From contig JBBDWL010000081.1 in NCBI GenBank assembly GCA_040902895.1, positions 37,660-101,659 of the forward strand: 64,000 nucleotides of DNA. Reading direction: 5' to 3'. Source of the DNA: Vicinamibacterales bacterium (lineage in GTDB: Bacteria > Acidobacteriota > Vicinamibacteria > Vicinamibacterales > SCN-69-37). The notes under the pieces were generated by a model. It was not told the origin of the DNA, made no database searches, and saw only the letters and a list, made by a program, of their open reading frames with translations. Below, piece by piece: positions 1,912 through 52,327 of this stretch; position 1 is the first letter of the stretch, and the number at the start of each line of letters is the position of its first letter. The position numbers and the translations under genes were made by a program.

Positions 1912-3410
1912 AAAGAACGGTTGCTGGCCTGCACGCCGAAGCCTTGGCGAAGGCGTGTTGCTGGCTTGCCCGCCGTAGCCTTGGCGTAGGCGGGTTGCTG
2001 GTTCTCGGTCTGTCGGCCGGCGCCGCTCTGATGCTTGCAGCGGCCCCTCTACGAGCGCAAAAACCGCTCTTCACGACGACTGTCCCCGCGTCCGAGTTTG
2101 CGGCGCGCCGCGCGGCGCTGATGCGCTCGATTGGCGACGGCGTGGCCATCGTGCGGGGCGCCACCGAACGGCCCGTCTACAAGCCATTCCGCCAGGGCGC
2201 ACAGTTCTTCTATCTCACGGGCGTCGAAGTGCCGCGCGCCATGTTGCTCGTCGACGGCCGCGCGAAGAGCTCGACGTTGTTTCTGCCGGCGCGCGACGAG
2301 CGCATGGAACGATCGGAAGGTCCGCTGCTCGGGCCTGGCCCCGACGCCGAGCGGCTGAGCGGCATCGAACGCGTTGTCGCGCGCGGCGACTTCGATGCGG
2401 CGCTTGCCGCTATCGCCGCTGAAGGCCGGCAGATCTTCACGACCTTCAGACCCGAGGCGCTGGAAGCGTCGACGCCGGGGCAGGTCCGCACGCACGCGCG
2501 CAAGACCGCCGACGACAAGTGGGATGGCCGCAAGTCGCGCGAAGACGTGTTCCGCGAGAAGCTTGCCGCACTCTCTCCGAAATCGGAGATCGCCGATCTG
2601 GATCGAATTCTCGATCGCATGCGCCTCGTCAAGAGCGCGCGCGAAATCGCGCTCGTCCGCGAATCCTCGCGCCTCGCGGGCGAAGCCATGCTCGAGGCGA
2701 TGCGCGTGGCGCGGCCCGGCATGAAGGAGCACGAGATCGAAGCGGTCGGCGACTATGTCTTCAAGGCGCACGGCTCGCAGGGCATCGGGTATTTCGCGCT
2801 CGTCGCGACCGGCACGAACGCGGCCTGGCCGCACTATCACGCCGGACGGGCCACGCTTGCCGACGGCGACCTCGTGCTGTTCGACTATGCGCCCGACGTC
2901 AACTACTACACCTCCGACGTGACGCGCATGTTTCCGGCCAACGGCCGCTTCACGCCGCGCCAGCGCGAGATGTACGGCATCTACGCGAAGCTGTACGAGG
3001 CGCTGCTGACGTCAATCCGGCCGCACGTCGCGCCGCGCGTGGTCATCGCGGCCGCGCACCGGAAGATGACCGGCATCATGAAGACGTTCGCCTTCTCCGA
3101 TCCGAAGGTCCGCGCCGCCGCCGACCGGTTCGTGGCCGGATACGCGAATGCGAACCGCAACAGCCTTGGGCACTGGATCGGCATGGAGGTGCACGACGTG
3201 ACGGCGCCCTACGAGACGCTCGAGCCCGGCATGATGTTCACGATCGAGCCGGCCCTCACGATACCCGACGAGCGCATCTACATCCGCCTCGAAGACGCCA
3301 TCGTCATCACCGCCGACGGCTACGAGAACATGTCGGGCTTCGTGCCGTTCGACATCGAAGGCGTCGAGCGCGTGATGCGCGAGGAGCCGAAGTACGTTCG
3401 AGCGAGATAG
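1902..3410 (+). CDS. Xaa-Pro aminopeptidase (M24B family)
   Basis: Pita-bread metal-ligand blocks DLVLFDYAPDVNYYTSDVTRMFP, GHWIGMEVHD, MFTIEPAL and IRLEDAIVIT. Signal-like segment GLLVLGLSAGAALMLAAAPLRAQ. Start is ambiguous: ATG 1902 sits 7 nt after a TATAAT, and TTG 1995 is the alternative. Confidence 0.8.
   Translation: MMRQRTVAGLHAEALAKACCWLARRSLGVGGLLVLGLSAGAALMLAAAPLRAQKPLFTTTVPASEFAARRAALMRSIGDGVAIVRGATERPVYKPFRQGAQFFYLTGVEVPRAMLLVDGRAKSSTLFLPARDERMERSEGPLLGPGPDAERLSGIERVVARGDFDAALAAIAAEGRQIFTTFRPEALEASTPGQVRTHARKTADDKWDGRKSREDVFREKLAALSPKSEIADLDRILDRMRLVKSAREIALVRESSRLAGEAMLEAMRVARPGMKEHEIEAVGDYVFKAHGSQGIGYFALVATGTNAAWPHYHAGRATLADGDLVLFDYAPDVNYYTSDVTRMFPANGRFTPRQREMYGIYAKLYEALLTSIRPHVAPRVVIAAAHRKMTGIMKTFAFSDPKVRAAADRFVAGYANANRNSLGHWIGMEVHDVTAPYETLEPGMMFTIEPALTIPDERIYIRLEDAIVITADGYENMSGFVPFDIEGVERVMREEPKYVRAR
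1920..2008. repeat. 37-bp tandem repeat, about 2.4 copies
   Basis: gttgctggc recurs at 1920, 1957 and 1994. Units are gttgctggcctgcacgccgaagccttggcgaaggcgt and gttgctggcttgcccgccgtagccttggcgtaggcgg. Confidence 0.85.
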
Positions 3411-3414
3411 CAGG

Positions 3415-5349
3415 ATGAAACACGCGGCTGTCTCGGTCCTGCTGCTTCTGGGTTGCGGCGGCTGTGGCCGTGAGGAGAAGCCCGCCACCACCGCCGCGCG
3501 TCCATCGATCCTGCTCGTCACGCTCGACACGACCCGCGCCGATTCCATCGGCCCCGAGGCGATCGGTGTCTCGACGCCCGCGTTCGACAGCGTGGCCGGC
3601 CGGGGCCGGCGCTTCACGCAGGCGTACGCGACTGCTCCAGAAACCCTTCCGTCGCACGCCTCGATGATGACCGGCCTGTATCCGGCAGGTCATGGTGTGC
3701 ACGAGAATGCGCGCGCGCTGCCGGACGGGAATGCGGTGCTGGCGGAACGGCTCAAGCATGCCGGCTACGCCACGGCCGCGTTCGTCTCGTCATTCGTGCT
3801 TGCCCGCCAGTTCGGGCTCGCGCAGGGGTTCGACGTGTACGACGATCTGCGTCCTGCAAACACCGTCGAGCGCCGTGCCCGCGACACCACCGATCGCGCG
3901 CTGAGTTTCCTCAGTCAGGCGCCGGCAACGGCGCCGCTGCTGCTGTGGGTCCACTACTTCGATCCGCATACGCCCTACGCACCGCCGGAGCCCTTCAAGT
4001 CGCGCCTGAGCGCGCCGCATCCTCGCGAGGCCTACCTCGGCGAGATCGGGGCCATGGACCAGCAGCTCGGACGTCTTATCCAGGCCTTCGAGCAGCATGC
4101 GTCACGCGCAGGACTGCCTCCGGCCATCGTCATCGCCGCCGATCATGGCGAAGGACTCGGCGATCACGGTGAATCGCAGCACGGCAATCTTTTGTATCAG
4201 TCGACGATGCATGTGCCGATGGTGATGGCGGGTCCGGGCGTAACCGCGGGCATTGTCGATGCGCCGGTGAGCACGCGGCGCATTTTTCACACCGTGCTCG
4301 ACTGGGCGGGACTTGGATCGGCCAACAGTCTGCGCGGCCCCAACGGAGGAGCCGGCGAAGTCGTGCTCGGCGAGGCGATGAAGCCCTATCTTGAATACGG
4401 CTGGCAGCCGCAGATCATGGCCGTGGAAGCTCGGCACAAAGCGATCTTCGCCGGTCGCACCGAGCTGTTTGATGTGATTGCGGATCCTGGCGAGACGCGC
4501 GATCTGGGTACTGGCGGCAATCTGCCGGCGGCGATTCGCAAGGCGCTCGACGACTACCCGGTGCCCGCGCCTGGAACCGATCGCGCCCCGCAGAATCTCA
4601 GCGCCGAGGCGCAGCGCAACCTCGCAAGTCTCGGGTACGTGAGCGCCACGGCGACGCCGGTGGTGCGCAAGGACGCGCCGCGGCCTGTCGACATGGCGCC
4701 GCTGTTCGACGAGATCGAGCAGGCCTCAACGTTCTTCGTGCGCGAGCAGTACGCGGAGGCGATTCCGGTGCTGCAGCGCATTCTCGCGAAGGATCCGTTC
4801 AATCTCGATGCGGCGCTCAGGCTCGCGACGGCGTATTCATCGCTCGGCCGCAATGCGCAGGCCGTGGAGATGTTCCGCAAAGCCGTCGCGATCTCGCCAC
4901 GCTCGCCGGATGTGCGGTTGTATCTCGCGTTGCATTACGCGCGAACGCCCGAGTGGGAGCGCGCACTGCCGATGCTCGAGCGGCTGGTGGTGGAAATGCC
5001 GGATCGCGTGCCGGCGTGGGAAACGCTCGGACAGCTCGCGATGCGTGCGGAGAGGACAGAGCTGGCGATTCGGGCATTCGAGCGTACGCGCGCCCTGGTG
5101 GGCGATGCGTTCCGCCGCGACCTGGAGCTGGGCGTGCTCTATCTTGCGGCGCGCCAGCTGTCCGAATCGCGTCAGGCGCTCGATCGCGTGCTCGCGTCAC
5201 GGCCCAATCATCCAATGGCGCTCTTCAAGCGCGCGCAGGTCAGCGTGTTGTTGAATGAGCCGGACAAGGCCGCGCGGATCGCCCTCGCCCGCAACCACGC
5301 CGACGCCACGACGCGTCCGCTGATTGCCGGCGAGCGGTTCTTTAAGTGA
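3415..5349 (+). CDS. Sulfatase-like (alkaline-phosphatase superfamily) hydrolase/transferase fused to C-terminal TPR repeats
   Basis: N-terminal LLVTLDTTRADSIG and ETLPSHASMMTGLYP blocks, later AADHGEGLGDHGE. The C-terminal ~200 aa are TPR-like (AIPVLQRILAKDPFNLDAALRLATAY...). Lipoprotein-like start LLLLGCGGC. Confidence 0.75.
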   Translation: MKHAAVSVLLLLGCGGCGREEKPATTAARPSILLVTLDTTRADSIGPEAIGVSTPAFDSVAGRGRRFTQAYATAPETLPSHASMMTGLYPAGHGVHENARALPDGNAVLAERLKHAGYATAAFVSSFVLARQFGLAQGFDVYDDLRPANTVERRARDTTDRALSFLSQAPATAPLLLWVHYFDPHTPYAPPEPFKSRLSAPHPREAYLGEIGAMDQQLGRLIQAFEQHASRAGLPPAIVIAADHGEGLGDHGESQHGNLLYQSTMHVPMVMAGPGVTAGIVDAPVSTRRIFHTVLDWAGLGSANSLRGPNGGAGEVVLGEAMKPYLEYGWQPQIMAVEARHKAIFAGRTELFDVIADPGETRDLGTGGNLPAAIRKALDDYPVPAPGTDRAPQNLSAEAQRNLASLGYVSATATPVVRKDAPRPVDMAPLFDEIEQASTFFVREQYAEAIPVLQRILAKDPFNLDAALRLATAYSSLGRNAQAVEMFRKAVAISPRSPDVRLYLALHYARTPEWERALPMLERLVVEMPDRVPAWETLGQLAMRAERTELAIRAFERTRALVGDAFRRDLELGVLYLAARQLSESRQALDRVLASRPNHPMALFKRAQVSVLLNEPDKAARIALARNHADATTRPLIAGERFFK

Positions 5350-5384: not shown

Positions 5385-5388
5385 CGTG

Positions 5389-5438
5389 CCTAAGGCCTAG
5401 GGCCTAAGGCCTAGGGCCCGTTATGGCCTACGGCCTGC
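5389..5438. repeat. Heptamer tandem repeat ctaaggc/ctagggc with degenerate extension
   Basis: cctaaggcctagggcctaaggcctagggcc, then cgttatggcctacggcctgc. Contains several AGGCCT palindromes. Lies between convergent stops. Confidence 0.85.
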
Positions 5439-8461: not shown

Positions 8462-9472
8462 CTAGCTGTGCGCCGCGGCGGCCAGCGCCTGCGCGTGCAC
8501 CGACGCGCCAACGAGCCCGGCCTGCTCGTTGAGGATGACGCGAATGGGGATTGTGGCCAGCAGATCGGTCATCGGCGGCTTGTCGCGGAAGGCGTCGAGG
8601 AAGCGCCCGCTTTCGAGCGCGGGCAGAATCTTCGGCGCGATGCCGCCGCCGAGATACACACCCGCCGTCGCCACTGAGCGCAGCGCGAGATTGCCCGCCT
8701 CCGATCCATAGACCTCGACGAACAGATTGAGCGTATCGACACAGCGCTCGCAGGTGTTGTCGAGCGCCGCCTCGGTAATCTGCGGCGGAGCGTCGGCGAT
8801 GTCGGTGCCGTCGGGCACGCCGTCGCAGCCGATGTCGTCTCCACCACCGTGGACGAAGCGGTACATGTTAACGACGCCCGGGCCCGACAGGAACGTTTCG
8901 ACCTCGATCCGCTCGCGCTCGCGCATGAAGAATTGAGCCATCGCGAGCTCGCGGGGATTACGCGGCGCGAAGTCAGCGTGGCCGCCTTCGGATGGCGAGG
9001 GCACGAAGCGGCCGTTCACGTTGTGCAGCAATGCTTCGCCGAGACCGGTGCCCGCGGCGATCAGCGCGGCATTGCCGCGCGGCATCGCCACGCCCTCCTG
9101 CAGCACGGCGATCTCGTCCGGCTCGAGAAACGGCACCGCATGCGCCATCGCTTCGAGATCGTTCAGCAGCTTCAGCCGTGCGCGGCCAACCTGCGGTGCC
9201 ACCAGCGCGAGATTCACGATCCACGGCACGTTGGTGAGACGCGCCACGAGTCCGTTGACCGGGCCTGCGACACCGACACACATCGCGTCGACCGGCGAGG
9301 CCGCCGCACCGTCGCGCACGCCGAGAAATTCATCGACGATCTCTTCGAAGCTGTCGAAGTCGAGCGTGCCGAACTCGCGCACGAGCACCGGCCGCGGCCG
9401 ATCGCCCGCCATGCCGCGCTCGAACAAGCCCAACAGTGTCTTGGTGCCGCCGACATCACCCGCGAGTAGCAC
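8462..9472 (-). CDS. glk: Glucokinase
   Basis: N-terminal ATP motif LLAGDVGGTKTLLGLF, overall ROK-less glucokinase layout (GVAGPV, GTGLGEA, GGHADFAP). GTG start. Confidence 0.8.
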   Translation of the reverse strand: MLLAGDVGGTKTLLGLFERGMAGDRPRPVLVREFGTLDFDSFEEIVDEFLGVRDGAAASPVDAMCVGVAGPVNGLVARLTNVPWIVNLALVAPQVGRARLKLLNDLEAMAHAVPFLEPDEIAVLQEGVAMPRGNAALIAAGTGLGEALLHNVNGRFVPSPSEGGHADFAPRNPRELAMAQFFMRERERIEVETFLSGPGVVNMYRFVHGGGDDIGCDGVPDGTDIADAPPQITEAALDNTCERCVDTLNLFVEVYGSEAGNLALRSVATAGVYLGGGIAPKILPALESGRFLDAFRDKPPMTDLLATIPIRVILNEQAGLVGASVHAQALAAAAHS

Positions 9473-9478
9473 GTTGGC

Positions 9479-9484
9479 ATTCTA
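9479..9484 (-). promoter_or_regulatory. -10-like TAGAAT 6 nt upstream of the glk GTG (possible leaderless transcript)
   Basis: The minus strand reads TAGAATgccaacGTG. Confidence 0.35.
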
Positions 9485-9540
9485 GTCGCACCCATCGAAC
9501 CTTGACTTGTCAGCCGCAGTGGTTCATTTTGGCGCAGTCA

Positions 9541-10626
9541 GTGGCGTCGATTCCTGAAACATCCGCCGCCGCCCGCCCGCTCGCGGGCGAGCGTGTGGCT
9601 CTCACCGGCAAACTCGTGCTGTTGTCGCGCCGCGACGCCCGCGCGCTCATCGAGCGTCTCGGTGGTCAGCTTCTCGACATGCCCGATGGCGAAGCCGCGG
9701 GCGCCGAGGGCGAACCGAACGGCGGCGCCGCGCCCGATCTGCCGCCTGGCACGCGCAGGATGTCGGAGGCCGAGCTGTGCGCCGCCGCCGGTCTGCCGGC
9801 CGCCGACGCGCTGCGCGCGCAGTTCAAGACGGCGCGCGACATCCGCGCGATGTATCCGAACATCAAGGACGAGCATCTGCGGTTCTTCGAGAAGTGGGGA
9901 CTCGTTCGTCCCGTCGCCGGCCGTTTCTATGGCTTCAGCGATCTGCATCTGATTCGTGAGGCCGCGTCGGCGCTCGACCAAGGCACGCCGCTGCAGGCCG
10001 TCGTGCGCTCGCTGTCATCGCGTCGCGAAGGACAGCTGCAGCTCGATTTTCAGACGCCGCGCGGACGCGACGCCGCCGGCCACCAGGCCCGCGTCGTCAC
10101 CCTCGAGCGCCGGCCGGATCCGCCGCCGGCGCTCTTTCCAATTACGCCGACGGCCGCGTTCGGCAGCGACGAGGCCCTTGCGGCGAAATATTTCACGGAA
10201 GCCGCGCGGCTCGACGATGGGACGGAGCAGAATCAGGAGGCGGCCGCGTCAACCTACCGGCGCGCGCTCATCATCGATCCCGAGCTCGTGCCCGCGCTGG
10301 TCAATCTCGCGAACATCCACTATGCGCGCGATCAGCACATCGAGGCGCTGGCGCTCTATGAGCGCGCGCTCGGTCTCGAGCCCGACTGCTTCGAGGCGCA
10401 CTTCAACCTCGGCAACGTGCATCACGATCTCTCGCGCTACGAAGAAGCGCTGGCCTGCTACCGCGAAGCCGTCTCGCTCAATCCCGGCTACCCGGAAGCG
10501 CATTTCTATCTGGCCGTGACGCTCGAAAAGATGGGCCGCTCCCCTGAAGCCAGACCACACTGGAAGCTCTATCGAGAGCTCGCGCCGGAAGGCGAATGGG
10601 CGGAATTGGCGAAAGAGTTCGAATAG
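9541..10626 (+). CDS. BRCT-like / MerR-type HTH / TPR-repeat protein
   Basis: GERVALTGKLVLLSRRDARALIERLGG is a BRCT-like start. The central MerR-like HTH is MSEAELCAAAGL...LRFFEKWGLVRP. The C-terminus has three or more TPR units (ALYERALGLEPDCFEAHFNLGNVH...). Start placed at GTG 9541, because the upstream part of the ORF overlaps the glk promoter region. Confidence 0.6.
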   Translation: MASIPETSAAARPLAGERVALTGKLVLLSRRDARALIERLGGQLLDMPDGEAAGAEGEPNGGAAPDLPPGTRRMSEAELCAAAGLPAADALRAQFKTARDIRAMYPNIKDEHLRFFEKWGLVRPVAGRFYGFSDLHLIREAASALDQGTPLQAVVRSLSSRREGQLQLDFQTPRGRDAAGHQARVVTLERRPDPPPALFPITPTAAFGSDEALAAKYFTEAARLDDGTEQNQEAAASTYRRALIIDPELVPALVNLANIHYARDQHIEALALYERALGLEPDCFEAHFNLGNVHHDLSRYEEALACYREAVSLNPGYPEAHFYLAVTLEKMGRSPEARPHWKLYRELAPEGEWAELAKEFE

Positions 10627-10662
10627 AAATTTACAATTGGTGAATTAAGAATTAAGAATTGC
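10627..10662. repeat. Left inverted-repeat arm, aaatttacaattggtgaattaagaattaagaattgc
   Basis: Read directly. Pairs with 11070-11105. Confidence 0.85.
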
Positions 10663-11015
10663 TACGAGGTGTTTCGGCGGGCGGTCGTCACTGACGTGGC
10701 GGTAATTGACAGCAGCTCACGGCACTCAGTGATCAGATTCTGCGGAGGCCGCGCGATGTCGGCGTCACGCAGGACGGATAGCCAGTGATCGGCTTCATCC
10801 AGTTCCTCAACAACCACTCCCATTTTCGCGAGCCATTCTGCCCTCGAGCGGCCACGCCGTGATGCCCTGTAATTTGATGCAGCGCCATTACTTGCGCGTC
10901 TGAGCTGTCGCGCGAGTTCGCGCGCTTCGTCGGTGCGAGGCAGTGTCCTGCAGAATCGAATGATGGCGATGGCGAAGTCGTAGGTCCGTTGCTGAAGCTG
11001 ATCGCGAAAGTCCAT
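10662..11015 (-). CDS. Four-helix-bundle protein (23S rRNA intervening-sequence protein family type)
   Basis: 117 aa. YDFAIAIIRFCRTLP...ELARQLRRASNGAASNYRASRRGRSRAEWLAKMGVVVEELDEADHWL matches the characteristic pattern of this small family. Confidence 0.8.
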   Translation of the reverse strand: MDFRDQLQQRTYDFAIAIIRFCRTLPRTDEARELARQLRRASNGAASNYRASRRGRSRAEWLAKMGVVVEELDEADHWLSVLRDADIARPPQNLITECRELLSITATSVTTARRNTS

Positions 11016-11069
11016 GCGCGGAGCGAAGGCATCTTCCGCGCCAATTGCGGCCGACGCGACGGCGTGACA

Positions 11070-11105
11070 GCAATTCTTAATTCTTAACTTACCAATTCTT
11101 AATTT
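11070..11105. repeat. Right inverted-repeat arm, gcaattcttaattcttaacttaccaattcttaattt
   Basis: Read directly. Its reverse complement matches 10627-10662 at 32/36 positions. Confidence 0.85.
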
Positions 11106-11111
11106 CGCGTC

Positions 11112-11405
11112 TCAGTACGAGGGTTTTCTGGCGACTCTTTTGAGCTTGAAATACGCGCACTCGGGGCACCAGGATTCGGGAGCGAAGCCTTCTTTGCCGG
11201 CATAGGGCAGCACGTCGCGGTGGGTGCAGAACTCGCCATCTTCCGGATCGGCGCGCCAGCGGCACGAGCGGAAGCGGGCCCACGCCGGCGTGAGCCGGTT
11301 CGGATCCGGCCCCGGCGCGCCGGGTGTCTTCGGCTCGAGCTGGCCTTCCTTCGCCGCGGGAGCCTCGGCCGGTTCCGAGGAACCGGGTTTGTTCTCGTCG
11401 TTCAT
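11112..11405 (-). CDS. Small Cys4 protein, hypothetical (possible metal-binding)
   Basis: 97 aa. Its ATG overlaps the helicase stop (ATGA). The N-terminal half is low-complexity P/E/A, followed by C-x11-C-x19-C-x2-C (CRWRADPEDGEFC...CPEC). Confidence 0.5.
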   Translation of the reverse strand: MNDENKPGSSEPAEAPAAKEGQLEPKTPGAPGPDPNRLTPAWARFRSCRWRADPEDGEFCTHRDVLPYAGKEGFAPESWCPECAYFKLKRVARKPSY

Positions 11406-12940: not shown

Positions 12941-15676
12941 TTATTGTGCCACAGAACCAGGCTTGGGCCCGGAATAGGGCTGCAGCGCGATCACCGCATC
13001 TCTAACCTTTGCAGCGAGTTCCGCGTAATTGTTTCCCTCGAGCCGCATGGGCTTGCCGAACGTAATCCTGACCGGACCGCGCGTAGGCCAGCTGGCGCTC
13101 AGGTGCAGCACCGTATTGAGCCCTTCGATGCGCACGGGCACCACGGGCACGCCAAGCTTCGAGGCGATCAGGCCGATGCCAGGGCGGAACACATTGATCT
13201 CGCCGTGGTCGGTGCGCTTGCCCTCCGGAAAGATGAGCAGCGACCGCTTCTGATCGAACAGCCGTCCGATGTAGCGAACCGTCTGGCGCGCACCTGCCTC
13301 GTATTGAGGGATCGGAAAGGCGTTGTAAAAGATCGCGGCGCTCAGATAGGCGGTGGTGTTACGGATCCGCGCGGCGACAGGGAAGTCGTGGGGAAAGAAG
13401 TGCGCCTTGAACCACTCCTTCGCCATCGCCGGCGACACGCGGTAACGCCATTTCGCCGGCAGCGCTTGCAGCACGGCGGGCGTGTCCATGTGGCTCTGGT
13501 GATTCGGCGCAAAGATCACCGGATGGTCGAGTCCTTCGAGATTCTCCAGACCCTCCACCGCGAGCTTCATCCAGGGCCGCGAAATGCTGAGCACCCACGT
13601 CGGAAGGCTCGCACGCCGAATCGCGCGAATGGGCCACGAATAATTCCAGTCGGGGAAGGGGATGCCGGGAACAGGAACGCGGGGAACGTGTGGTTCCACT
13701 GGTTCCACTGGTTCCATTGGTTCCCCAGGTTCGGTTCTCCGTTCCGCGGGTTCACGTTCCACAGGTTCGCGTTCCACGAGCTTCGCGAGGTCGCCGACCG
13801 TCGTGGCGGCGGCGAATTCGCCTTCATCGATCGACACGTGGAGGGCTTCCTCGATGCGCGCGAGTAGTTGCACCCGATCGAGCGAGCCGAGGCCGAGCTC
13901 GTCGAAAGTCGTTTCGCGGGTCACCGCGCGTCCGGCCACCATGGCCGAGACGATTTCTTCAACCGTCTGGCCGGGCACCTGAGCGGGCGCGGTCGTCGCA
14001 CCGCCACCCTGGGCCCAGCGCTGAATCTCTTTGCGCCGCAGCTTCCTCGTGCCCTCGGTACGCGGCAGCGCGTCGCCCGTCCACAGGCTCCAGCTCCAGA
14101 TACGCTGGTGATCCTCGAGCTGCGCGTTTGCGTCCTTCACCACCGCACCCGGCGAGGCGCCCTTTTCCAGCAGCAGCACGGCGTGCACGCGCTCCTGGCG
14201 GCCCGCGCCGGTTTCAGGCGTGACGCCGACGACCGCCGACTCGACGACTCCCGGCTGCGCGTTCACCGCGCGCTCGACGTCGTCCGGAAACACGTTCAGG
14301 CCTTCGGCCGTGACGATCATCTCTTTCTTGCGGCCTTTGATCGTGAGACGCCCCTCGGCATCGAGGTCGCCGATGTCGCCCGTGTGGAACCATCCGCCGG
14401 CGAACGCCTCGCGCGTCTCGCGCTCGGCGTTGTAGTAGCCGGTGGTGACGTTTTCGCCGCGCACCAGGATCTCGCCGTCGTCCGCGATTTTGATCTCGAC
14501 GCCGCTGAGCGGCGTCCCGACCGTGCCGGCCCCCGGTTTTCGAAACGGATGATTCAGCGTCACAACCGGCGCCGTCTCGGTCAGGCCATAGCCCTGGATG
14601 ACGAGAAACCCGCGCTCGCGCCAGAACTCCTCGAGCTCGCGCTCGAGCGGCGCGCCGCCGACGACGATGCACCAGAACTTGAAGCCGAACAGGCGATGCA
14701 CGTCGCGATGAATCCACCACCGCCGCACCCAGTGCACAGGCTTACTCCCCTTACCTTCCTCACTCGACTCACTCGACTCACTCGACTTACTCGACTTACT
14801 CGACTTACTCACGTGCTCGCGCAGCACGTCGAGCACTTTCGGCACGCAGACCAGCACCGAGACGCGGCGCGTCTTGATCTGCCGCACGATCTCCTGCGGG
14901 TTGTAGCCGCGTGAGAAGACCACGGTGCCGTCCACCATCGGCGGCATGAACGTCGCCATCGACTGGCCGAACATGTGGCTGAGCGGCAGCAGATTGAGAA
15001 AGCGGAGCGGCGCCACCAGCGGCAGATACTTCCGGTACTTCTTGATCTCCTCTTCGATGGGATTGATGTTGGCGAGAATGTTCTTATCGGTAAGTGTGAC
15101 GCCCTTCGGCTCGGCCGTGGCGCCCGACGTGAAGATAATTTCGGCTAACTGTGGTTCCCCAGGTTCCAGTGGTTCCACACGTTCCCCGGGTTCGGTTCCC
15201 GGTTCTCGGTTCCCGTTCCACAAGTTCTCATCGTCCATGCGCCAGATCTGGAAGCCGTCGGCCGCCGGCGGCGTCACGTCGGCGCCCACGAGCAGCACCG
15301 GGGCCTGCACGATGTTACGGATGCGAAGCGCCTGCTCGGGCGAGGCGCGGAAGTCGACGGGGACCGAGACGAGCCCGGCGAGACGGATGCCCCACAGCGC
15401 CGCGATCCACTCGCCGCGGTTCTCACCCCAGATGACGATCTTGACGCCGGGCGCCAGGCCGGCGGCCTTCAGCCTCGCGGCAAACGCGCGCGACGCGTCC
15501 GCCAGCCGGCCGTAGGTCCACTGGCGGGTGCGAAAGCCGTCGTCATGCAGGATGAACGTCTGCTCGCGGCGCTTCGAGGCCGCGATGTAGTCGCGGAAGA
15601 AGGCGACGAGGGTCTCACGGCGCCTGGGTGGCGGGGTCAATCGCGTAGCGTTTTTCAAGGGCTTCTCGCAGCCCAT
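12941..15676 (-). CDS. Tri-domain acyl-activating enzyme: AMP-dependent synthetase / carrier-protein domain / PlsC-type acyltransferase
   Basis: AMP-binding motifs IIFTSGATAEPKGV, GYGLTET, GWFHTGDIG, GRKKEMI. Carrier-like FDELGLGSLDRVQLLARIEE. Acyltransferase motifs NHQSHMDT (HX4D) and FPEGKRT. Start set at ATG 15676 (MGCEKPLK...), because the longer ORF to 16093 overlaps the upstream peroxidase gene. Confidence 0.8.
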   Translation of the reverse strand: MGCEKPLKNATRLTPPPRRRETLVAFFRDYIAASKRREQTFILHDDGFRTRQWTYGRLADASRAFAARLKAAGLAPGVKIVIWGENRGEWIAALWGIRLAGLVSVPVDFRASPEQALRIRNIVQAPVLLVGADVTPPAADGFQIWRMDDENLWNGNREPGTEPGERVEPLEPGEPQLAEIIFTSGATAEPKGVTLTDKNILANINPIEEEIKKYRKYLPLVAPLRFLNLLPLSHMFGQSMATFMPPMVDGTVVFSRGYNPQEIVRQIKTRRVSVLVCVPKVLDVLREHVSKSSKSSKSSESSESSEEGKGSKPVHWVRRWWIHRDVHRLFGFKFWCIVVGGAPLERELEEFWRERGFLVIQGYGLTETAPVVTLNHPFRKPGAGTVGTPLSGVEIKIADDGEILVRGENVTTGYYNAERETREAFAGGWFHTGDIGDLDAEGRLTIKGRKKEMIVTAEGLNVFPDDVERAVNAQPGVVESAVVGVTPETGAGRQERVHAVLLLEKGASPGAVVKDANAQLEDHQRIWSWSLWTGDALPRTEGTRKLRRKEIQRWAQGGGATTAPAQVPGQTVEEIVSAMVAGRAVTRETTFDELGLGSLDRVQLLARIEEALHVSIDEGEFAAATTVGDLAKLVEREPVEREPAERRTEPGEPMEPVEPVEPHVPRVPVPGIPFPDWNYSWPIRAIRRASLPTWVLSISRPWMKLAVEGLENLEGLDHPVIFAPNHQSHMDTPAVLQALPAKWRYRVSPAMAKEWFKAHFFPHDFPVAARIRNTTAYLSAAIFYNAFPIPQYEAGARQTVRYIGRLFDQKRSLLIFPEGKRTDHGEINVFRPGIGLIASKLGVPVVPVRIEGLNTVLHLSASWPTRGPVRITFGKPMRLEGNNYAELAAKVRDAVIALQPYSGPKPGSVAQ
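13689..13770 (-). repeat. In-frame tandem repeat, GGTTCC family (period ~9), encodes E/P/V linker
   Basis: tgtggttccactggttccactggttccattggttccccaggttcgg...gcgttccacgag. Translated on the minus strand as EPVEREPAERRTEPGEPMEPVEPVEPH. Shares both ends with 15150-15224. Confidence 0.85.
14741..14812 (-). repeat. In-frame 9-bp tandem repeat, GAGTAAG family, encodes SKSSKSSKSSESSESSEEGKGSK
   Basis: The minus strand reads gtgagtaagtcgagtaagtcgagtaagtcgagtgagtcgagtgagtcgagtgaggaaggtaaggggagtaag, i.e. 8 units of 9 nt. Confidence 0.9.
15150..15224 (-). repeat. In-frame tandem repeat, GGTTCC family, second copy
   Basis: tgtggttccccaggttccagtggttccacacgttccccgggttcggttcccggttctcggttcccgttccacaag. Encodes NREPGTEPGERVEPLEPGEPQ immediately before the TSGATAEPKG P-loop. 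Confidence 0.85.
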
Positions 15677-15717
15677 GGTGCCACAGGGCGAAGAAGGCGA
15701 GATCGCCGGCGAGGAGA

Positions 15718-16734
15718 TCAGCGAGGCCGCACTGATGCGGAACCGTCGGCGATCCGGCCGCTGAGCGATCGCAGGAAGGCGAGCAGAAAGCCCTTCTCCT
15801 GAGCGCTCAGTTGCAGCGGGCGGATTTCCGGATCCAGAGTCGGATTGGGGCGGCCTCCGCGATCGTAGAACGCGATTACGTCCTCGAGGGTCGCGACGCT
15901 GCCGTCGTGCATGTATGGCGCCGTGCGCGCGATCTCGCGCAGCGTGGGCGTCTTGAACGCCCCGCGATCGCCCGGGGCGCCGCTGACCGCGAATCGGCCG
16001 GCGTCCCGATATCCTTCCGCGACGTCCTCGCTCGCCCATGCGACACCGGTGTTGTGAAACCGCTCGTCGCTGAAGGTCGGGCCAAGGTGGCACGCCGTAC
16101 AGTTCGCTTTGCCGCGAAATACACGGAGGCCGGCCTGCGCTTGGGTAGATAGCGCATTCGCGTCGCCTGCGAGAAAACGATCGACGGGCGCGTCGCCGGC
16201 CTGAATCGACCGCACATAACTGGCCAGTGCCCGCGCGAGGTCGTCGCGGCTTACCTCGCGCGCGAAGGCGTCCCGGAATGCCGGCGCGTAATGGCGGTCG
16301 GCCGCCAGCCGCCGCACCACCTCATCGACCTCGGATCCGAGTTCGGCGGGATCCTCGATCGGACCCAGCACCTGTTCTTCGAGCGACGCGGCACGGCCGT
16401 CCCAGAAAAACGCCGCGCCGTACCCACGATTGAGAATCGCTGGAGCATTCCGCCGGCCGACGCGGCCGCCGACCCCCCGGCTCAACGCCCGGCCGTCGGC
16501 AAACGCGCGCGCCGGAACGTGGCACGTGGAGCACGCGATGGATCCATCGCGAGACAGGCGCGTGTCGAAGAACAGCCGCCGGCCAAGACTGATGCTTGCC
16601 TCAGTCAGCGGATTGTCTTCGGGCACCGGCATGTAGAGATCGAGGCCGAGCAGCACACGCCGCGGCCCGGCGGGCGCCGCGATTAGTGGAAGCCACATCA
16701 AGACGATGCCGGCGAGGATCGGTCCAGACCGCAT
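15718..16734 (-). CDS. Di-haem cytochrome c peroxidase / MauG family protein
   Basis: Two CxxCH motifs (CSTCH, CTACH), FFDTRLS and PYMHDGS blocks. Start set at MRSGPILAGIVLMWL (ATG 16734), just after the upstream gene's stop. Confidence 0.85.
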   Translation of the reverse strand: MRSGPILAGIVLMWLPLIAAPAGPRRVLLGLDLYMPVPEDNPLTEASISLGRRLFFDTRLSRDGSIACSTCHVPARAFADGRALSRGVGGRVGRRNAPAILNRGYGAAFFWDGRAASLEEQVLGPIEDPAELGSEVDEVVRRLAADRHYAPAFRDAFAREVSRDDLARALASYVRSIQAGDAPVDRFLAGDANALSTQAQAGLRVFRGKANCTACHLGPTFSDERFHNTGVAWASEDVAEGYRDAGRFAVSGAPGDRGAFKTPTLREIARTAPYMHDGSVATLEDVIAFYDRGGRPNPTLDPEIRPLQLSAQEKGFLLAFLRSLSGRIADGSASVRPR

Positions 16735-27476: not shown

Positions 27477-28445
27477 ATGGAGATCATCATGAAACACACC
27501 ATCCTCGCATTCGCCTTCGTCACTCTCGCCACGCCCGCGATGGCGCAGCAGCCTTCGGCGGCGCTCAGGCTGCCCCGAGCGGCAGTCGAGGGGCACGAAC
27601 ATCACGGTCAACCCGCGCAGGCCGCTGGCGCGGCCGGGCAGCAGCCGCCGGCGCAGCCGCAGGCCGTGACGCCGCCAGACAAGATGGACGAGTCGCGGCC
27701 TCCGGGCACCGACGCGTTCGTGAAGATTGCGCTCGAGACGAGCCCGCGCCACCACGAGTGGGTCGACATCAAGATGAACGACGGCACGATCGTGAAATCG
27801 TTCGTCGTTTTCCCTGAGAGCAAGGACCGCACGGGCGTGGTCATCGTCATTCACGAAAATCGCGGGCTGAATGACTGGGCGCGGTCGGTGGCGGATCAAT
27901 TGGCGGAAGACGGGTTCATCGCGATCGCGCCGGATCTGCTGTCGGGCAAAGGGCCAGGCGGCGGCAACACCGACTCGATCCCGCCCGATCAGGCCACCCG
28001 CGCCATCGGACAGCTCACGAACGACGAGGTGAACAAGCGGCTCGACGCCGTGCGCGAGTACGCGATCCAGATGCCGCCCGGGAACGGTCGCGTCGGCATG
28101 GTGGGATTCTGCTGGGGCGGCGGCAAGGTGTTTCAGTACGCCGCGCATCGCCCGGGACTCAATGCCGGCGTTGTCTATTACGGTTCGGCGCCCGCGCCGG
28201 CGCTGCTCGAACGCATCGTCACGCCGATACTCGGCCTGTTCGGCGAACAGGACGCGCGCGTGAACACCACGATTAACGCGGCGCTGCCGATCCTCAACAA
28301 GGATCGCGAGATTTTGAAGGCCCACATGTTCCGGGGCGCGGGCCACGGCTTTCTGCGGCAGCAATTCGGCCGCGAAGCCAACCTCAAGGCTTCGGAAGAC
28401 GCCTGGCCGCTCACGATTCGCTTCCTTCGCGAGCATCTGAAGTGA
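27477..28445 (+). CDS. Dienelactone hydrolase family protein, secreted
   Basis: Signal peptide KHTILAFAFVTLATPAMAQ, VVIVIHENRGLNDW, nucleophile elbow GFCWGGG, GAGHGF. Confidence 0.8.
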   Translation: MEIIMKHTILAFAFVTLATPAMAQQPSAALRLPRAAVEGHEHHGQPAQAAGAAGQQPPAQPQAVTPPDKMDESRPPGTDAFVKIALETSPRHHEWVDIKMNDGTIVKSFVVFPESKDRTGVVIVIHENRGLNDWARSVADQLAEDGFIAIAPDLLSGKGPGGGNTDSIPPDQATRAIGQLTNDEVNKRLDAVREYAIQMPPGNGRVGMVGFCWGGGKVFQYAAHRPGLNAGVVYYGSAPAPALLERIVTPILGLFGEQDARVNTTINAALPILNKDREILKAHMFRGAGHGFLRQQFGREANLKASEDAWPLTIRFLREHLK

Positions 28446-28533
28446 GTAAGGCGAGTAAGGCGAGTAAGGCGAGTAAGGCGAGTAAGGGAAGTAAGGCGGG
28501 TAAGGCAGGTGAGGCGGGTAAGGCGGTTAAGCC
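28442..28533 (+). repeat. 9-bp tandem repeat, GAGTAAG family (about 10 units)
   Basis: gtgagtaaggcgagtaaggcgagtaaggcgagtaaggcgagtaagggaagtaaggcgggtaaggcaggtgaggcgggtaaggcggttaagcc. Starts at the GTGA overlap with the preceding stop codon. Confidence 0.9.
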
Positions 28534-28771
28534 GAAGGCGCCCACGCCCGACCGTCCCGTGAATCTGCGTCTGACCGCGCCGGAGTATCAGCTTGTCTCG
28601 TATGCGGCGTCGAAGACGCGGGCGCGCGGGGTGAATGCGTGGATGCGCGAAGCGGTGGTCGAGGCCGCGCGGCATTCGGCCGGCAAGGAAATGTCGGAAG
28701 ACATTCTGTCGGGTAAAGGAACCGTAAGACTGCTGCGCGAATCGCTGGCCGAGGCGCGCAAGTCGCGGTGA
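28442..28771 (+). CDS. Ribbon-helix-helix-like small protein with (SKA)n repeat N-terminus; start uncertain
   Basis: VNLRLTAPEYQLVSYAASKTRARGVNAWMREAVVEAA resembles a CopG/Arc-type RHH. The N-terminal 30 aa are repeat-encoded. The alternative start GTG 28559 would leave the repeat untranslated. Confidence 0.4.
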   Translation: MSKASKASKASKASKGSKAGKAGEAGKAVKPKAPTPDRPVNLRLTAPEYQLVSYAASKTRARGVNAWMREAVVEAARHSAGKEMSEDILSGKGTVRLLRESLAEARKSR

Positions 28772-44305: not shown

Positions 44306-44335
44306 TTTGACTATTAGTCAAATGACTAGTAGTGT
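44306..44335 (+). promoter_or_regulatory. Predicted padR promoter with 17-bp perfect palindrome operator
   Basis: tTTGACTattAGTCAAa (44306-22) contains a -35 TTGACT. A 17-nt spacer leads to TAGTGT (44330-35). GGAGG at 44351-55 sits 5 nt before GTG 44361. Confidence 0.6.
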
Positions 44336-49345: not shown

Positions 49346-50611
49346 ATGCGGCTGAGCTTCTCATTACTAATAGCGGCACTCACAGCCACGTTGTTCGTGC
49401 CCCGTGCGGCCGAGGCCCAGACCGTACCCGCGGTGGTCGCGGCGCAACCCGAACCGCCCGACGCCACGCGCGAAGAACTGCTGCGCAGGGCCCGCGAGGC
49501 CAAAAAAGACATCGTTCGTCCTCCCGAGCCAACGCAGCTCGAAAAACTGATCGCGCGCATCGAGCCCTACGTCATGACGCCGCCCGTGCCTGGCATGGCG
49601 TTCCGCCGCGGTTTCTACCCGAAATTCGGCAGTGTGGCGCCCGGCGGGGGATGGGCGGTGGGCCCTGCCTTCCGGTATGAGGGTCTGGCGCGCGGCCACG
49701 TCGACGCCGACGTTTTCGCGCGCATGTCGTGGAAACGCTATTGGCAGGTCGAGGGCCGGCTGCGCATGCCGCGGCTCAACGACGCGCACACCGGCGTTGG
49801 CGTCTTTGGCCGCATCCGCGACATGCCGCAGGAGGACTTCTTCGGCTTTGGTCCCGACTCGGTCCGCGATGACCGCGTGAGCTTCGCGCTCCGCGAGGTC
49901 GCGGCGGGCGCGTTTGCCGATCATCGCATCGGCTCGCTGACGCTGCACGCCGGCGCCGACTTCGTGCGGCCGACAACGCGCGAAGGCGCCGACAAGAACT
50001 ATCCATCCATCGAGCAGCGCTTCGACATCACCACGATTCCGGGATTCGTCGACGAGCCCGATTTCGTCGTGCTGCGCGGCGGCGCCGCGTTCGATCGCAC
50101 CGACGAACCTGGCAACCCGCGGCGCGGGCCGCAGCATCGGGTGGAATTCTCGCGCTGGACATCGCGCGGCGGGGCGCCGTTGAGCTTCAGCGCGGTCACC
50201 GCCGATCTTCGGCAGTTCCTGTCATTCCTGAACCATACGCGCGTGATCGCGTTGCGCGGCGCCCTCTGGCACACGGCGGCAAGCGGCGGGGCCGACGTGC
50301 CGCTCTATTACCAGCCGGTGCTCGGCGGCGGACGCGCGCTGCGCGGCTATCGCGAGTTCCGCTTCCGCGACCGATCGGCGCTGCTGCTGCAGGCCGAATA
50401 TCGCTATCAGCTTTTTGCCGGCGCCGACGGCGTCATGTTTTACGAAGCGGGCACGGTCGGGCCGTCGCTGGGCGATCTCGGATCGCTCAAGACCGACTAT
50501 GGGCTGGGTCTTCGCGTTGGCAGCGGCCAGGGCGTGTTTCTGCGGATCGAGGCGGCGTTCGGCACACCCGAGAGCCCGCGCGTCTACATCAAATTCAGCA
50601 ATGCGTTTTAG
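49346..50611 (+). CDS. Omp85/bacterial-surface-antigen-type outer-membrane barrel without obvious POTRA array
   Basis: Signal MRLSFSLLIAALTATLFVPRAAEAQ. C-terminal RGYREFRFRD...YGLGLRVG...FLRIEAAFG...YIKFSNAF with terminal Phe. Confidence 0.65.
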   Translation: MRLSFSLLIAALTATLFVPRAAEAQTVPAVVAAQPEPPDATREELLRRAREAKKDIVRPPEPTQLEKLIARIEPYVMTPPVPGMAFRRGFYPKFGSVAPGGGWAVGPAFRYEGLARGHVDADVFARMSWKRYWQVEGRLRMPRLNDAHTGVGVFGRIRDMPQEDFFGFGPDSVRDDRVSFALREVAAGAFADHRIGSLTLHAGADFVRPTTREGADKNYPSIEQRFDITTIPGFVDEPDFVVLRGGAAFDRTDEPGNPRRGPQHRVEFSRWTSRGGAPLSFSAVTADLRQFLSFLNHTRVIALRGALWHTAASGGADVPLYYQPVLGGGRALRGYREFRFRDRSALLLQAEYRYQLFAGADGVMFYEAGTVGPSLGDLGSLKTDYGLGLRVGSGQGVFLRIEAAFGTPESPRVYIKFSNAF

Positions 50612-52283
50612 GAGATGGACGTCACTGCCGGCCGGTGCGGCGCTCGCCGCCGCGATCCTCGCGCTGTCGACGCTTGTGGGCGCCGCGCAGCGCAGCGGCC
50701 CGCTCTTCAGGCCCGACGATCCGCTCGCCGCCGACAACGATCGCGCCGTGGACGTCGGCAAGCTCGAAGAGCGCGACGACAGCGACATCTACGATTTTAT
50801 CGAGCACACCTTCCTCGGGCCCGGCAGCAGCGATGACATCCGCGCGCTCAACGTGAACACGATCGACGAAGTGCCCGACTCGAGCTGGTTTGCCAACCGG
50901 TACGCGCGCGGGTTGCCGTCCGGTGAAGTGCTGGCCCGCGGTCACGACACGCTCGACTCGCTCGACATCACGGGATGGCCTGTCTCGGAAGGCAAGGGAG
51001 AGGGCGCGACGCCAGGATTCAGAGTGCGCGGTCCTGACGGCGCCGACTATCAGCTGAAGTTCGATCCCGAATCGAACCCCGAGATGACGACCGGCGCGGA
51101 GGTGATTGGCACCGGTTTCTATCACGCCTTCGGCTACAACGTTGTCGAGATGTACCTGGTGGAGTTCGACGGCGACAACTACACCATCCTGCCGGGTGCG
51201 ACGATCAGCTTCCAGGGAGGCAAAGAGCGATCGCTTACGCGAGTCGACGTCGACGGAGTGCTCGAGATATCGGCGCGGCTGCCGAATCGCCGCTATCGTG
51301 CCGTTGCGCGGAAGATGCCCAAAGGCGACGGCATCGGCACCTTCCGGTACTACGGCACGCGTCCCGACGACCCGAACGACATCTTTCCGCACGAGCATCG
51401 CCGCGAGCTGCGCGCCGCCCGCGTCTTCGCGGCATGGCTCGACCACGACGACTCGCGCGGCATCAACTCGAAGGACATCGTCGTGCAGGAAGGCGGCCGC
51501 CGGTACGTCAAGCATTTTATGTACGACTTCAACTCGACGCTCGGCGCGGGCACGCGCGCGCCGCAGACCCCGAGACATGGCAACGAGTATCAGTTCGACA
51601 TAGACCAGGCGCTCAAAACGCTGGTGACGTTCGGCTTTTACCTCAAACCCTGGGCGAGGATTGAGTACCCTGACGCCCCGCCGGCCGTCGGCAACTTCGA
51701 GAGCCGCTTTTTCAATCCGGTGAGATGGAAGCCGAACTATCCGCTGCCGGCATTCGATCGCATGCGGCCTGAAGACGCGTTCTGGGCCGCGCGGATCATC
51801 GCGCGATTCAATGAGCCGGCGGTGCGGGCGATTGTGGGCAGAGCGCGATACACAGACCCCGCCGCGACCGACCACATCGTTCGCACGCTGATGGCGCGCC
51901 GCGACAAGATTCTGCGCGTGTGGCTGAACGGCGTGATGCCGATCGTGAGCCCCGCGCTCGGGTCATCGGGACTTACGTTCAGGAACGCCGCGGTTGATGC
52001 TGGAGTGGCGGCCGCGCCAGCCGCTTATCAGATCACCTGGTATGCCTTTGACAACGCGACCGGCGCGCATCGGCGCGCTGGAGAGACCGTCAGCACGCCC
52101 GCGGCGCAGCCGGCGGCGTTGCCGCCCGGACTTGCGGGCGAGGCATTCGTGATGGCCGCCGTCTCGGCTGATGGCGCCGATCCCAACTGGCGCAAACCCG
52201 CGCGCGTGTACTTCCGCAAGCAGGGCACCGGCTGGCAGCTGGTCGGCCTCGAGCGCGATCACACGGAGCTGCCAGGCCAATAG
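50601..52283 (+). CDS. Secreted hypothetical protein with protein-kinase-like catalytic signature
   Basis: Signal MRFRRWTSLPAGAALAAAILALSTLVGA. ADYQLKF (beta3 Lys-like), AWLDHDDSRGINSKDIVV (HxDxxxxN), then YDFNSTLG 20 residues later. Its ATG overlaps the end of the Omp85 gene. Confidence 0.5.
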   Translation: MRFRRWTSLPAGAALAAAILALSTLVGAAQRSGPLFRPDDPLAADNDRAVDVGKLEERDDSDIYDFIEHTFLGPGSSDDIRALNVNTIDEVPDSSWFANRYARGLPSGEVLARGHDTLDSLDITGWPVSEGKGEGATPGFRVRGPDGADYQLKFDPESNPEMTTGAEVIGTGFYHAFGYNVVEMYLVEFDGDNYTILPGATISFQGGKERSLTRVDVDGVLEISARLPNRRYRAVARKMPKGDGIGTFRYYGTRPDDPNDIFPHEHRRELRAARVFAAWLDHDDSRGINSKDIVVQEGGRRYVKHFMYDFNSTLGAGTRAPQTPRHGNEYQFDIDQALKTLVTFGFYLKPWARIEYPDAPPAVGNFESRFFNPVRWKPNYPLPAFDRMRPEDAFWAARIIARFNEPAVRAIVGRARYTDPAATDHIVRTLMARRDKILRVWLNGVMPIVSPALGSSGLTFRNAAVDAGVAAAPAAYQITWYAFDNATGAHRRAGETVSTPAAQPAALPPGLAGEAFVMAAVSADGADPNWRKPARVYFRKQGTGWQLVGLERDHTELPGQ

Positions 52284-52287
52284 CAGA

Positions 52288-52327
52288 TCACCAAATCACC
52301 AGATCACCAAATCACCAAATCCATCAT
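52288..52327. repeat. Intergenic 8-bp tandem repeat (atcaccaa/atcaccag) x4.5
   Basis: Read directly: atcaccaa atcaccag atcaccaa atcaccaa atccatca. About 70 nt upstream of the receiver gene. Confidence 0.9.

Follow-up and report, generated by a model that had tools for sequence, protein, structure and literature searches.

The window analysed here, a stretch of 64 kb with a GC content of 65.7% from a soil bacterium of the Vicinamibacterales (Acidobacteriota), contains a unit of roughly 480 bp that occupies the whole gap between two convergent stop codons. The unit consists of a gene for a four-helix-bundle (FHB) protein of the rRNA intervening sequence (IVS) type, bracketed by two inverted arms of 38 nt each that are 89% complementary and have 405 nt between them. 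The arms are made up of GAATTAA heptamers around a TTGGTGA core. An earlier inspection of the letters by themselves, the sequence-only reading, had described an inverted repeat around the gene matching at 32 of 36 positions, which is the same pair slightly trimmed, and had pointed to its heptamers and strong AT-richness; five 30-nt stretches in the window have a GC content of 30% or less, and the two longest of these are the arms. When a 20-mer of the arm was compared with the 64 kb, allowing up to 3 mismatches, only the two arms matched, and two matches were obtained in 0 of 100 shuffles. The FHB gene is present in a single copy in the window, with no second copy. The features of the unit and its immediate borders are as follows.

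10624-10626, plus strand: TAG stop codon of the upstream TPR/MerR-like gene (9436-10626; TPR, tetratricopeptide repeat), abutting the outer end of the left arm
10626-10663, unstranded: left arm, the 3′ arm in the sense of the FHB gene, with its inner end overlapping the stop codon of that gene
10662-11015, minus strand: FHB gene, 117 aa, PF05635/TIGR02436 (Avd / S23p / rRNA-IVS family)
11016-11068, minus strand: leader of 53 nt between the 5′ arm and the ATG, containing one GCTGTCAC octamer and a conserved TGGCGCGGAAGATGC block
11069-11106, unstranded: right arm, the 5′ arm in the sense of the FHB gene, reverse complement of the left arm
11112-11114, minus strand: stop codon of a 97-aa Cys-rich open reading frame (ORF; 11112-11405), 5 nt beyond the right arm

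The unit thus fills the gap between its neighbours, as had been proposed, with one stop codon touching the left arm and the other 5 nt off the right. The 97-aa ORF is the end of a DEAD-box helicase operon, which converges on the TPR gene. The neighbours here and at orthologous loci comprise the TPR gene, glucokinase, the 97-aa ORF, the DEAD-box helicase, IF-1 and an acyl-AMP ligase/acyltransferase. Neither rRNA nor any other Rfam family was found in the whole window, and the claim of a non-rRNA context for the unit therefore holds. In the predicted fold of the sense transcript the terminal stem is closed in both the minimum-free-energy and the centroid structures (z = -2.55). A promoter and terminator scan returned one weak sigma-70-like match, located inside the left arm and pointing inwards, and found no intrinsic-terminator pattern in the arms.

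The assignment of the 117-aa protein to the rRNA-IVS-type FHB family is borne out by profile searches, in which it passed the cut-offs of both PF05635 (40.2 bits; cut-off 33.8) and TIGR02436 (63.8 bits; cut-off 24). The AlphaFold2 model of the monomer has four helices and a mean confidence (pLDDT) of 96.2. For this model, the best Foldseek matches were BT_0352 (2RLD), with a template modelling (TM) score of 0.81–0.84, Xcc0516 (2GSC), with about 0.70, and bAvd (4DWL), an accessory protein of diversity-generating retroelements (DGRs), with 0.66–0.75. The closest solved relatives are arranged as five chains in their crystals. Avd, the best-studied member of the family, is a pentameric nucleic-acid-binding scaffold. 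Among orthologues the ratio of non-synonymous to synonymous divergence (dN/dS) is 0.05–0.13, at a dS of 1.0–1.5 where synonymous sites are saturated. Purifying selection acts on the FHB protein, whose fold is that of Avd/S23p. A profile search detected no transposase domain in the product, and PADLOC gave no defence family match.

Comparison of the same site in relatives shows that the unit is a discrete module, which can be present, absent or flipped and whose arms are kept complementary and conserved. An orthologous cassette lies in the same orientation between the same two genes at L001/L002, L006, L091, L093 and L129, while at L007 the cassette is flipped between the same two stop codons. 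The same flip is present in L003-5, which are three independent assemblies. In both orientations the short spacer by the 97-aa ORF and the direct abutment of the TPR stop remain with the flanks; these flank-bound outer junctions fit an inversion that would have occurred through exchange within the arms. The sequence-only reading had suggested looking for empty sites, and clean ones do exist at the same position in close relatives, reading, from one stop to the other, TGA-t-TCA in L087-89 and TGA-cgtttc-CTA in L090. The TPR protein of the empty locus L087 is 92% identical to that of the filled locus L001, the closest pair of the set, and FHB identities parallel TPR identities throughout the relatives. 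Thus the cassette is old at this site and has been inherited vertically, and in at least one lineage it has been lost cleanly, exactly at the palindrome's base. No duplication of the target site can be seen between filled and empty sites. There is no sign of recent transposition, and the cassette has co-diverged with its neighbours. The suggestion of a mobile cassette accordingly stands in part: empty sites, flips and dispersed arms (see below) speak for a discrete DNA module, but not for one that has transposed recently.

The arms themselves are 82–94% identical among most orthologous elements, despite the high dS of 1.0–1.5, and fall to 65% in L093, the most diverged. In L093, both arms have changed at nine columns, with the same new base at six of these, compared with six columns where a single arm has changed. 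Inside the AT-rich arms lie GC-rich octamer arrays (GCTGTCCC and its complement), which are also inverted and whose copy number varies among relatives: L001 has 4 versus about 10 copies (3322-3353 and 3741-3830), L129 has 3 on each side, and the window has 1 versus 0. The leader octamer GCTGTCAC, a single unit in the window, has grown to inverted arrays in L001 and L129.

Three further loci illustrate the variation around this site and its relatives, including copies in decay. At L093 (1723-2643) the arms of the orthologous cassette are diverged yet complementary, the FHB frame is broken by a frameshift, and about 480 extra nt separate the gene from the 3′ arm. In the inverted-cassette lineage (L003 4370-8010, also L004 and L005) the FHB gene is cut short at the 3′ end, and about 3.6 kb of extra genes, among them a methyltransferase and several hypotheticals, lie between the cassette and the 97-aa ORF and DEAD helicase. 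In marine metagenomes (L066 1299-1903; runs X5/X6), a related Planctomycete contig has 255 other nt replacing the stretch of the FHB cassette, which hints at presence/absence variation; the alignments are short, at about 85–90% identity.

The arms are found in many places without the gene. A metagenome scan with a 22-mer of the arm recovered 49 loci, only 2 of which have an FHB gene. On high-GC contigs the full arm, with the consensus AATTAAGAGTTGGTGAATTAAGAGTTAAGAATTGCTGTC, is present at many unrelated sites, and 19 high-GC metagenome loci hold solo arms and hairpin doublets. Gene-less hairpins are seen at L094/L139, L096, L134 and L103; an Rfam search of such hairpins gave only sub-threshold look-alikes of plant miRNAs. 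The solo arms press against stop or start codons, for example between a DUF503 gene and rbfA (L133), after a gltX-like gene (L115, L136), before a SufE-like gene (L130, L135) and after a tRNA (L104, L109), and for several host genes the last codons and the stop are supplied by the arm. In low-GC organisms the same 22-mer is located at the edge of long GAATTAA arrays.

The only sequencing run found to contain the window, a sediment DNA run (run X1), gives a similar picture. The gene and its flanks have a word depth of 30, compared with 252 in the left arm and 506 in the right arm, so that arm depth is 8–17 times gene depth, as a measure of the community and not of one closed genome. Contigs in this run break exactly at 10625, 10660, 11067 and 11104-11106, and one contig joins both arms via a 26-nt GC palindrome in place of the gene. 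An inverted joint at the locus was not seen in run X1, which has one orientation. The arrays around FHB genes are dispersed repeats of the host genome, as measured here at the level of the community.

The window also holds arrays that stand by themselves: ATCACCAA repeated 4.4 times at 52284-52321, directly after the TAG stop of an ORF (50415-52283); GAGTAAGGC repeated 9 times at 28443-28535, beginning at a TGA stop; and GCCTAAG repeated 4.4 times at 5388-5418, after a GC-rich hairpin. No inverted partner lies within 1 kb of any of the three, which may be cognate to further FHB paralogues at other places in the genome.

The bracketing of the gene extends well beyond this site. A homologue scan restricted to one genome per species yielded 80 loci, at 35–88% identity, from Acidobacteriota, Planctomycetota, Verrucomicrobiota, Chloroflexota and Bacteroidota. 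For each locus, the 220 nt upstream and the 220 nt downstream were compared for their best inverted match without gaps, which was set against 458 shifted-window controls. The match lay above the 99th percentile of the controls in 67/81 loci and above the control maximum in 63 (Mann-Whitney p = 1e-38). The sequence-only reading had proposed to seek flanking inverted repeats around paralogues in the genome; paralogues across phyla do have them. The sequence of the arms differs by clade (for example GAATTAA, AAGTGGAA, GGGAAGT, GGATTGC, ATTTGCG, GATTGAT, ATTTAGC and GATTTGGT), on a shared design of tandem units of 7 or 8 nt with a GC content that averages 20 points under that of the locus. How similar the arms of two loci are follows the similarity of their proteins (Mantel r = 0.60, p ≤ 5e-4). 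The gaps from cassette to neighbour have medians of 112 and 86 nt, and where the two neighbours are oppositely oriented, 20 loci are convergent and 6 divergent. The inward-reading strand has more G than C at both ends in 63/64 loci; this property is symmetric in any inverted repeat and thus uninformative on the strand used, and the idea of a ‘C-poor 5′ arm’ as a polarity relative to the gene was rejected for the same reason.

Arms are also clear on seven finished plasmids (from Gloeocapsa, two Nostoc, Treponema, Chlorohelix, Pseudanabaena and Planktothrix) and weak on that of Bernardetia. Those of the Gloeocapsa PCC 7428 plasmid are GATTTTA arrays of 22 nt with 91% complementarity; other named carriers are Nostoc C057, N. 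flagelliforme (31 nt, 100%) and Treponema saccharophilum. As bracketed cassettes are found on finished plasmids of cultured strains, an artefact of metagenome assembly is ruled out. Three identical FHB genes in N. flagelliforme were considered as a test of transposition and rejected, since they sit in duplicated plasmid backbones. Nearly all relatives of the gene, in at least seven phyla, are bracketed alike, and the generalisation across the FHB family is strong. Two points are thereby added to the sequence-only reading: the arms are mostly gene-less, and the architecture holds for the family at large.

One GGGAATC array of X. campestris extends over the XCC0516 start codon (Rehm et al., 2015, supplement). 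The fold search described above identifies Xcc0516 as an FHB homologue. Within the literature searched, no paper was found that links the PF05635 family to flanking arrays. A sub-profile built here matched 9,828 clusters at 50% identity.

Some of the plasmid cassettes have distinctive surroundings. On the Gloeocapsa PCC 7428 plasmid (L143 9240-15998) and the Chlorohelix plasmid (L150), the FHB cassette has the same place, with a DUF1156 gene on one side and a Swt1-family HEPN gene on the other, in what looks like a defence operon. The arrays in both hosts, a cyanobacterium and a member of the Chloroflexota respectively, are of the GATTTTA/GATTTGG type; either the operon has travelled with its cassette or the FHB gene belongs to that system. 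In Pseudanabaena, the FHB cassette is immediately upstream of cas1.

We favour the explanation, with a probability of roughly 60%, that the unit is one copy, bearing a gene, of a palindromic repeat family dispersed in this Vicinamibacterales lineage: an IVS-type FHB cassette outside rRNA, with a probable array-binding protein and an organisation like that of the REPIN-RAYT systems, in which REPs (repetitive extragenic palindromes) go together with a REP-associated tyrosine transposase (RAYT). The two arms would fold back on each other. At the level of DNA, this fold-back, together with recombination from arm to arm, would lead to inversion, to clean loss at the base of the stem and to concerted evolution of the arms. 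At the level of RNA, a stem of 36–38 bp would enclose the whole ORF and would be a likely substrate for RNase III, as in the 23S IVSs. Cleavage would free the cassette from the transcripts of its neighbours, rendering insertion harmless, and a cassette that is harmless within or between transcription units would explain how similar cassettes settled in rRNA. The FHB protein, as a putative pentameric nucleic-acid binder, would recognise the arrays cognate to it, those around its own gene as well as the dispersed ones; by analogy, we consider such binding its most likely activity. The logic would be that of a RAYT gene flanked by its REPs, without a recognisable catalytic site.

A number of observations weigh against this explanation. 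Processing by RNase III at the stem is suggested by analogy with the IVSs, and the mismatches in the arms show no excess of G·U over A·C (65 vs 76, p = 0.4). Given this neutral result for wobble pairs, what keeps up the pairing may act on the DNA, or may be homogenisation. (A comparison of RNA duplex energies for the 220-nt flanks, sense versus antisense, was discarded, as the GC-rich coding flanks out-compete the AT-rich arms.) Neither a target-site duplication nor, in the window, a near-identical copy of the whole cassette was found, which gives active transposition no support. The FHB protein has no conserved catalytic-looking residues common to the wider family. Clear arms are missing in 14/81 loci, and host phylogeny is a confounder where arms and proteins diverge together. 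On the N. flagelliforme plasmids (L145 2402-2432 and 2866-2896) the perfect 31-nt AATTCAA / TTGAATT arms have the C-containing strand reading inwards, the reverse of the usual polarity. Finally, the same arms as those of the window bracket an unrelated 77-aa ORF (MARGWESKNIEAQQEE...) at L132 (368-654), with a homologue in L118; here the end of the upstream gene (IKSW*) and the tail of the 77-aa ORF (ILNS*) are both encoded by arms. This ORF has no Pfam or NCBIfam match, and the possibility that it is a distant FHB relative was rejected, as no similarity to the FHB family was found.

The last of these points is also one of several that favour a different view of the gene, as mere cargo, trapped between two copies or in the loop of a hairpin, of an ordinary repeat, of the kind of REPs or of MITEs (miniature transposable elements with inverted repeats), which is moved by a transposase encoded elsewhere and to which the protein is unconnected. 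Most copies of the arm are gene-less (with FHB in 2/49), solo arms lie at many gene ends, and the FHB protein is without a catalytic motif. We nevertheless consider this rather unlikely. A passenger gene would not readily account for the presence of the same protein family as cargo in 67/81 loci from five phyla and on eight finished plasmids, with clade-specific arms whose sequence tracks that of the protein; there is no target-site duplication, and no transposase is found nearby, here or at the compared orthologous loci. The arms could alternatively be an expression device and nothing more, immobile, and acting as a bidirectional terminator, an insulator or an mRNA-stabilising stem, with the other copies being similar terminators or operators. 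The location of the unit between convergent genes is consistent with this, as are the convergent bias across the family (20 vs 6), the stable terminal stem that is predicted and the solo arm at L123, which is followed by a GC hairpin and a run of T. However, relatives do without the element, having just 1–6 nt between two stop codons, the whole unit including the gene is present, absent or inverted as a block, solo arms are situated inside operons right before start codons (L133, L115, L119), and the arms show no intrinsic-terminator pattern, all of which make an exclusively regulatory role distinctly improbable.

The existence of both orientations in close relatives (the window, L001, L006, L091 and L129 versus L007 and L003-5), with outer junctions that stay with the flanks in both states, raises the question of whether the arms are sites for a site-specific invertase, so that a flip toggles the gene or its neighbours. 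Inversion, though, is an expected by-product of any inverted repeat. There is no recombinase gene nearby, each assembly has a single orientation, the two states occur only in different lineages, no inverted joint was seen at the locus in run X1, and since the gene is co-directional with one converging neighbour in either orientation there is no obvious on/off logic; a programmed switch of this type is very unlikely. That the FHB gene should be the Avd of a DGR is harder still to credit. Its fold does resemble bAvd and the Avd chains of the DGR ribonucleoprotein (TM 0.64–0.75), and PF05635 includes Avd, but neither a reverse transcriptase nor a template/variable repeat pair occurs among the neighbours, here or at orthologous loci. 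An integron-cassette reading was rejected, there being no attC-type single site.

The favoured explanation, a gene-bearing copy of a dispersed repeat, places the unit between several known systems. The parallel with rRNA intervening sequences drawn by the sequence-only reading is apt. Like the 23S rRNA IVSs with an S23p ORF (of the Leptospira, Coxiella, Brucella and Xanthomonas type), the unit encodes a protein of the PF05635 family, its ORF is enclosed by terminal inverted repeats with a stem of about 28–38 bp, and it is about 430–480 nt in length, with a GC content under that of the genome and a sporadic distribution. In contrast to the IVSs, which are located in helix 9, 25 or 45 of 23S rRNA, it lies between the TPR gene and the 97-aa ORF, and being outside rRNA it is not an rRNA IVS. 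Its arms are heptamer arrays shared with many gene-less copies, and RNase III cutting, which has been shown for the IVSs, is proposed here by analogy. With REPIN-RAYT it has in common a short palindromic repeat scattered through intergenic DNA, both singly and as inverted doublets, a single protein gene flanked by cognate inverted repeats, and long vertical inheritance. The protein here is a 117-aa four-helix bundle, whereas that of REPIN-RAYT is an IS200/IS605-like HUH/Y1 enzyme, and as the gene is not a Y1 transposase the unit is not a REPIN-RAYT. The arms are tandem arrays of 7–8 nt without the GTAG/CGTC tags of REPs, and an action of the FHB protein on the repeats is likewise suggested by analogy.

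Heptamer arrays with convergent pairs have been described previously in Xanthomonas and Nostoc, with no function known (Rehm et al., 2015). The GGGAATC arrays of Xanthomonas, the GGGGAYT arrays of Nostoc and the cyanobacterial short tandemly repeated repetitive (STRR) sequences resemble the arms in having 7-nt units, intergenic positions at gene ends and many convergent inverted pairs. The Xanthomonas and Nostoc arrays have been discussed as formers of G-quadruplexes, which GAATTAA arrays cannot form; a connection of these arrays to the FHB family was not found in the papers searched. MITEs are similar in their terminal inverted repeats, small size, AT-richness, position hard against gene ends and gene-less hairpin copies. 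This copy differs from a classical MITE, and is not one, because it is coding and without a target-site duplication; no matching transposase is known, and the arms consist of tandem arrays that vary in sequence along with the protein between them. The fold is shared with the Avd of DGRs, as probably is a pentameric nucleic-acid-binding architecture. The FHB gene, however, stands alone, with no reverse transcriptase, template repeat or variable repeat, and the absence of a reverse transcriptase means that the unit is not a DGR, just as the absence of a recombinase means that it is not a programmed switch. Overall, the closest parallel is an IVS for its proposed mode of action and REPIN-RAYT for its organisation.

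Some other features of the window deserve mention. The 97-aa Cys-rich ORF (...CRWRADPEDGEFCTH...WCPECAYFKLKR; 11112-11405) overlaps the stop codon of the DEAD-box helicase and is conserved in hundreds of Acidobacteriota contigs. It has no match in Pfam, NCBIfam or PADLOC, and may be a zinc-binding partner of the helicase. The acyl-AMP ligase/acyltransferase ORF (1050 aa, 12941-16093) contains 9-nt tandem repeats at 13691-13787, 14759-14810 and 15151-15219, which encode runs such as SKSSKSSKSSESSESSE and PVEPVEP. At 44306-44335, an isolated AT-rich near-palindrome, TTTGACTATTAGTCAAATGACTAGTAGTGT, stands amid GC-rich DNA and has the look of an operator.

In conclusion, this locus and its relatives tie together three old questions: the role of the ORF in 23S IVSs, the origin of the IVSs, and the reason for the excess of heptamer tandem arrays in many bacterial genomes. 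Genes of the IVS protein family nearly always lie inside inverted arrays of heptamers or octamers. We tentatively suggest, as a possibility that falls short of even odds, that FHB proteins are the trans-acting partners of short-unit arrays, including GAATTAA here, GGGAATC in Xanthomonas and the heptamer and STRR repeats of cyanobacteria. Each clade of the protein would bind, and help to keep or spread, its own family of arrays, and the 23S IVSs would be cassettes that landed in rRNA loops. Such a partnership of protein and repeat, vertically inherited like REPIN-RAYT, would be built on a non-catalytic pentameric binder. Array binding, RNase III cutting and the change in arrays after removal of the gene can all be tested in culturable carriers. 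With 9,828 clusters matched, what is seen here bears on a very large part of bacterial genomes for which there is no explanation. If the suggestion is true, the REPIN-RAYT idea of long-lived, vertically inherited repeat systems extends to a second, unrelated protein.

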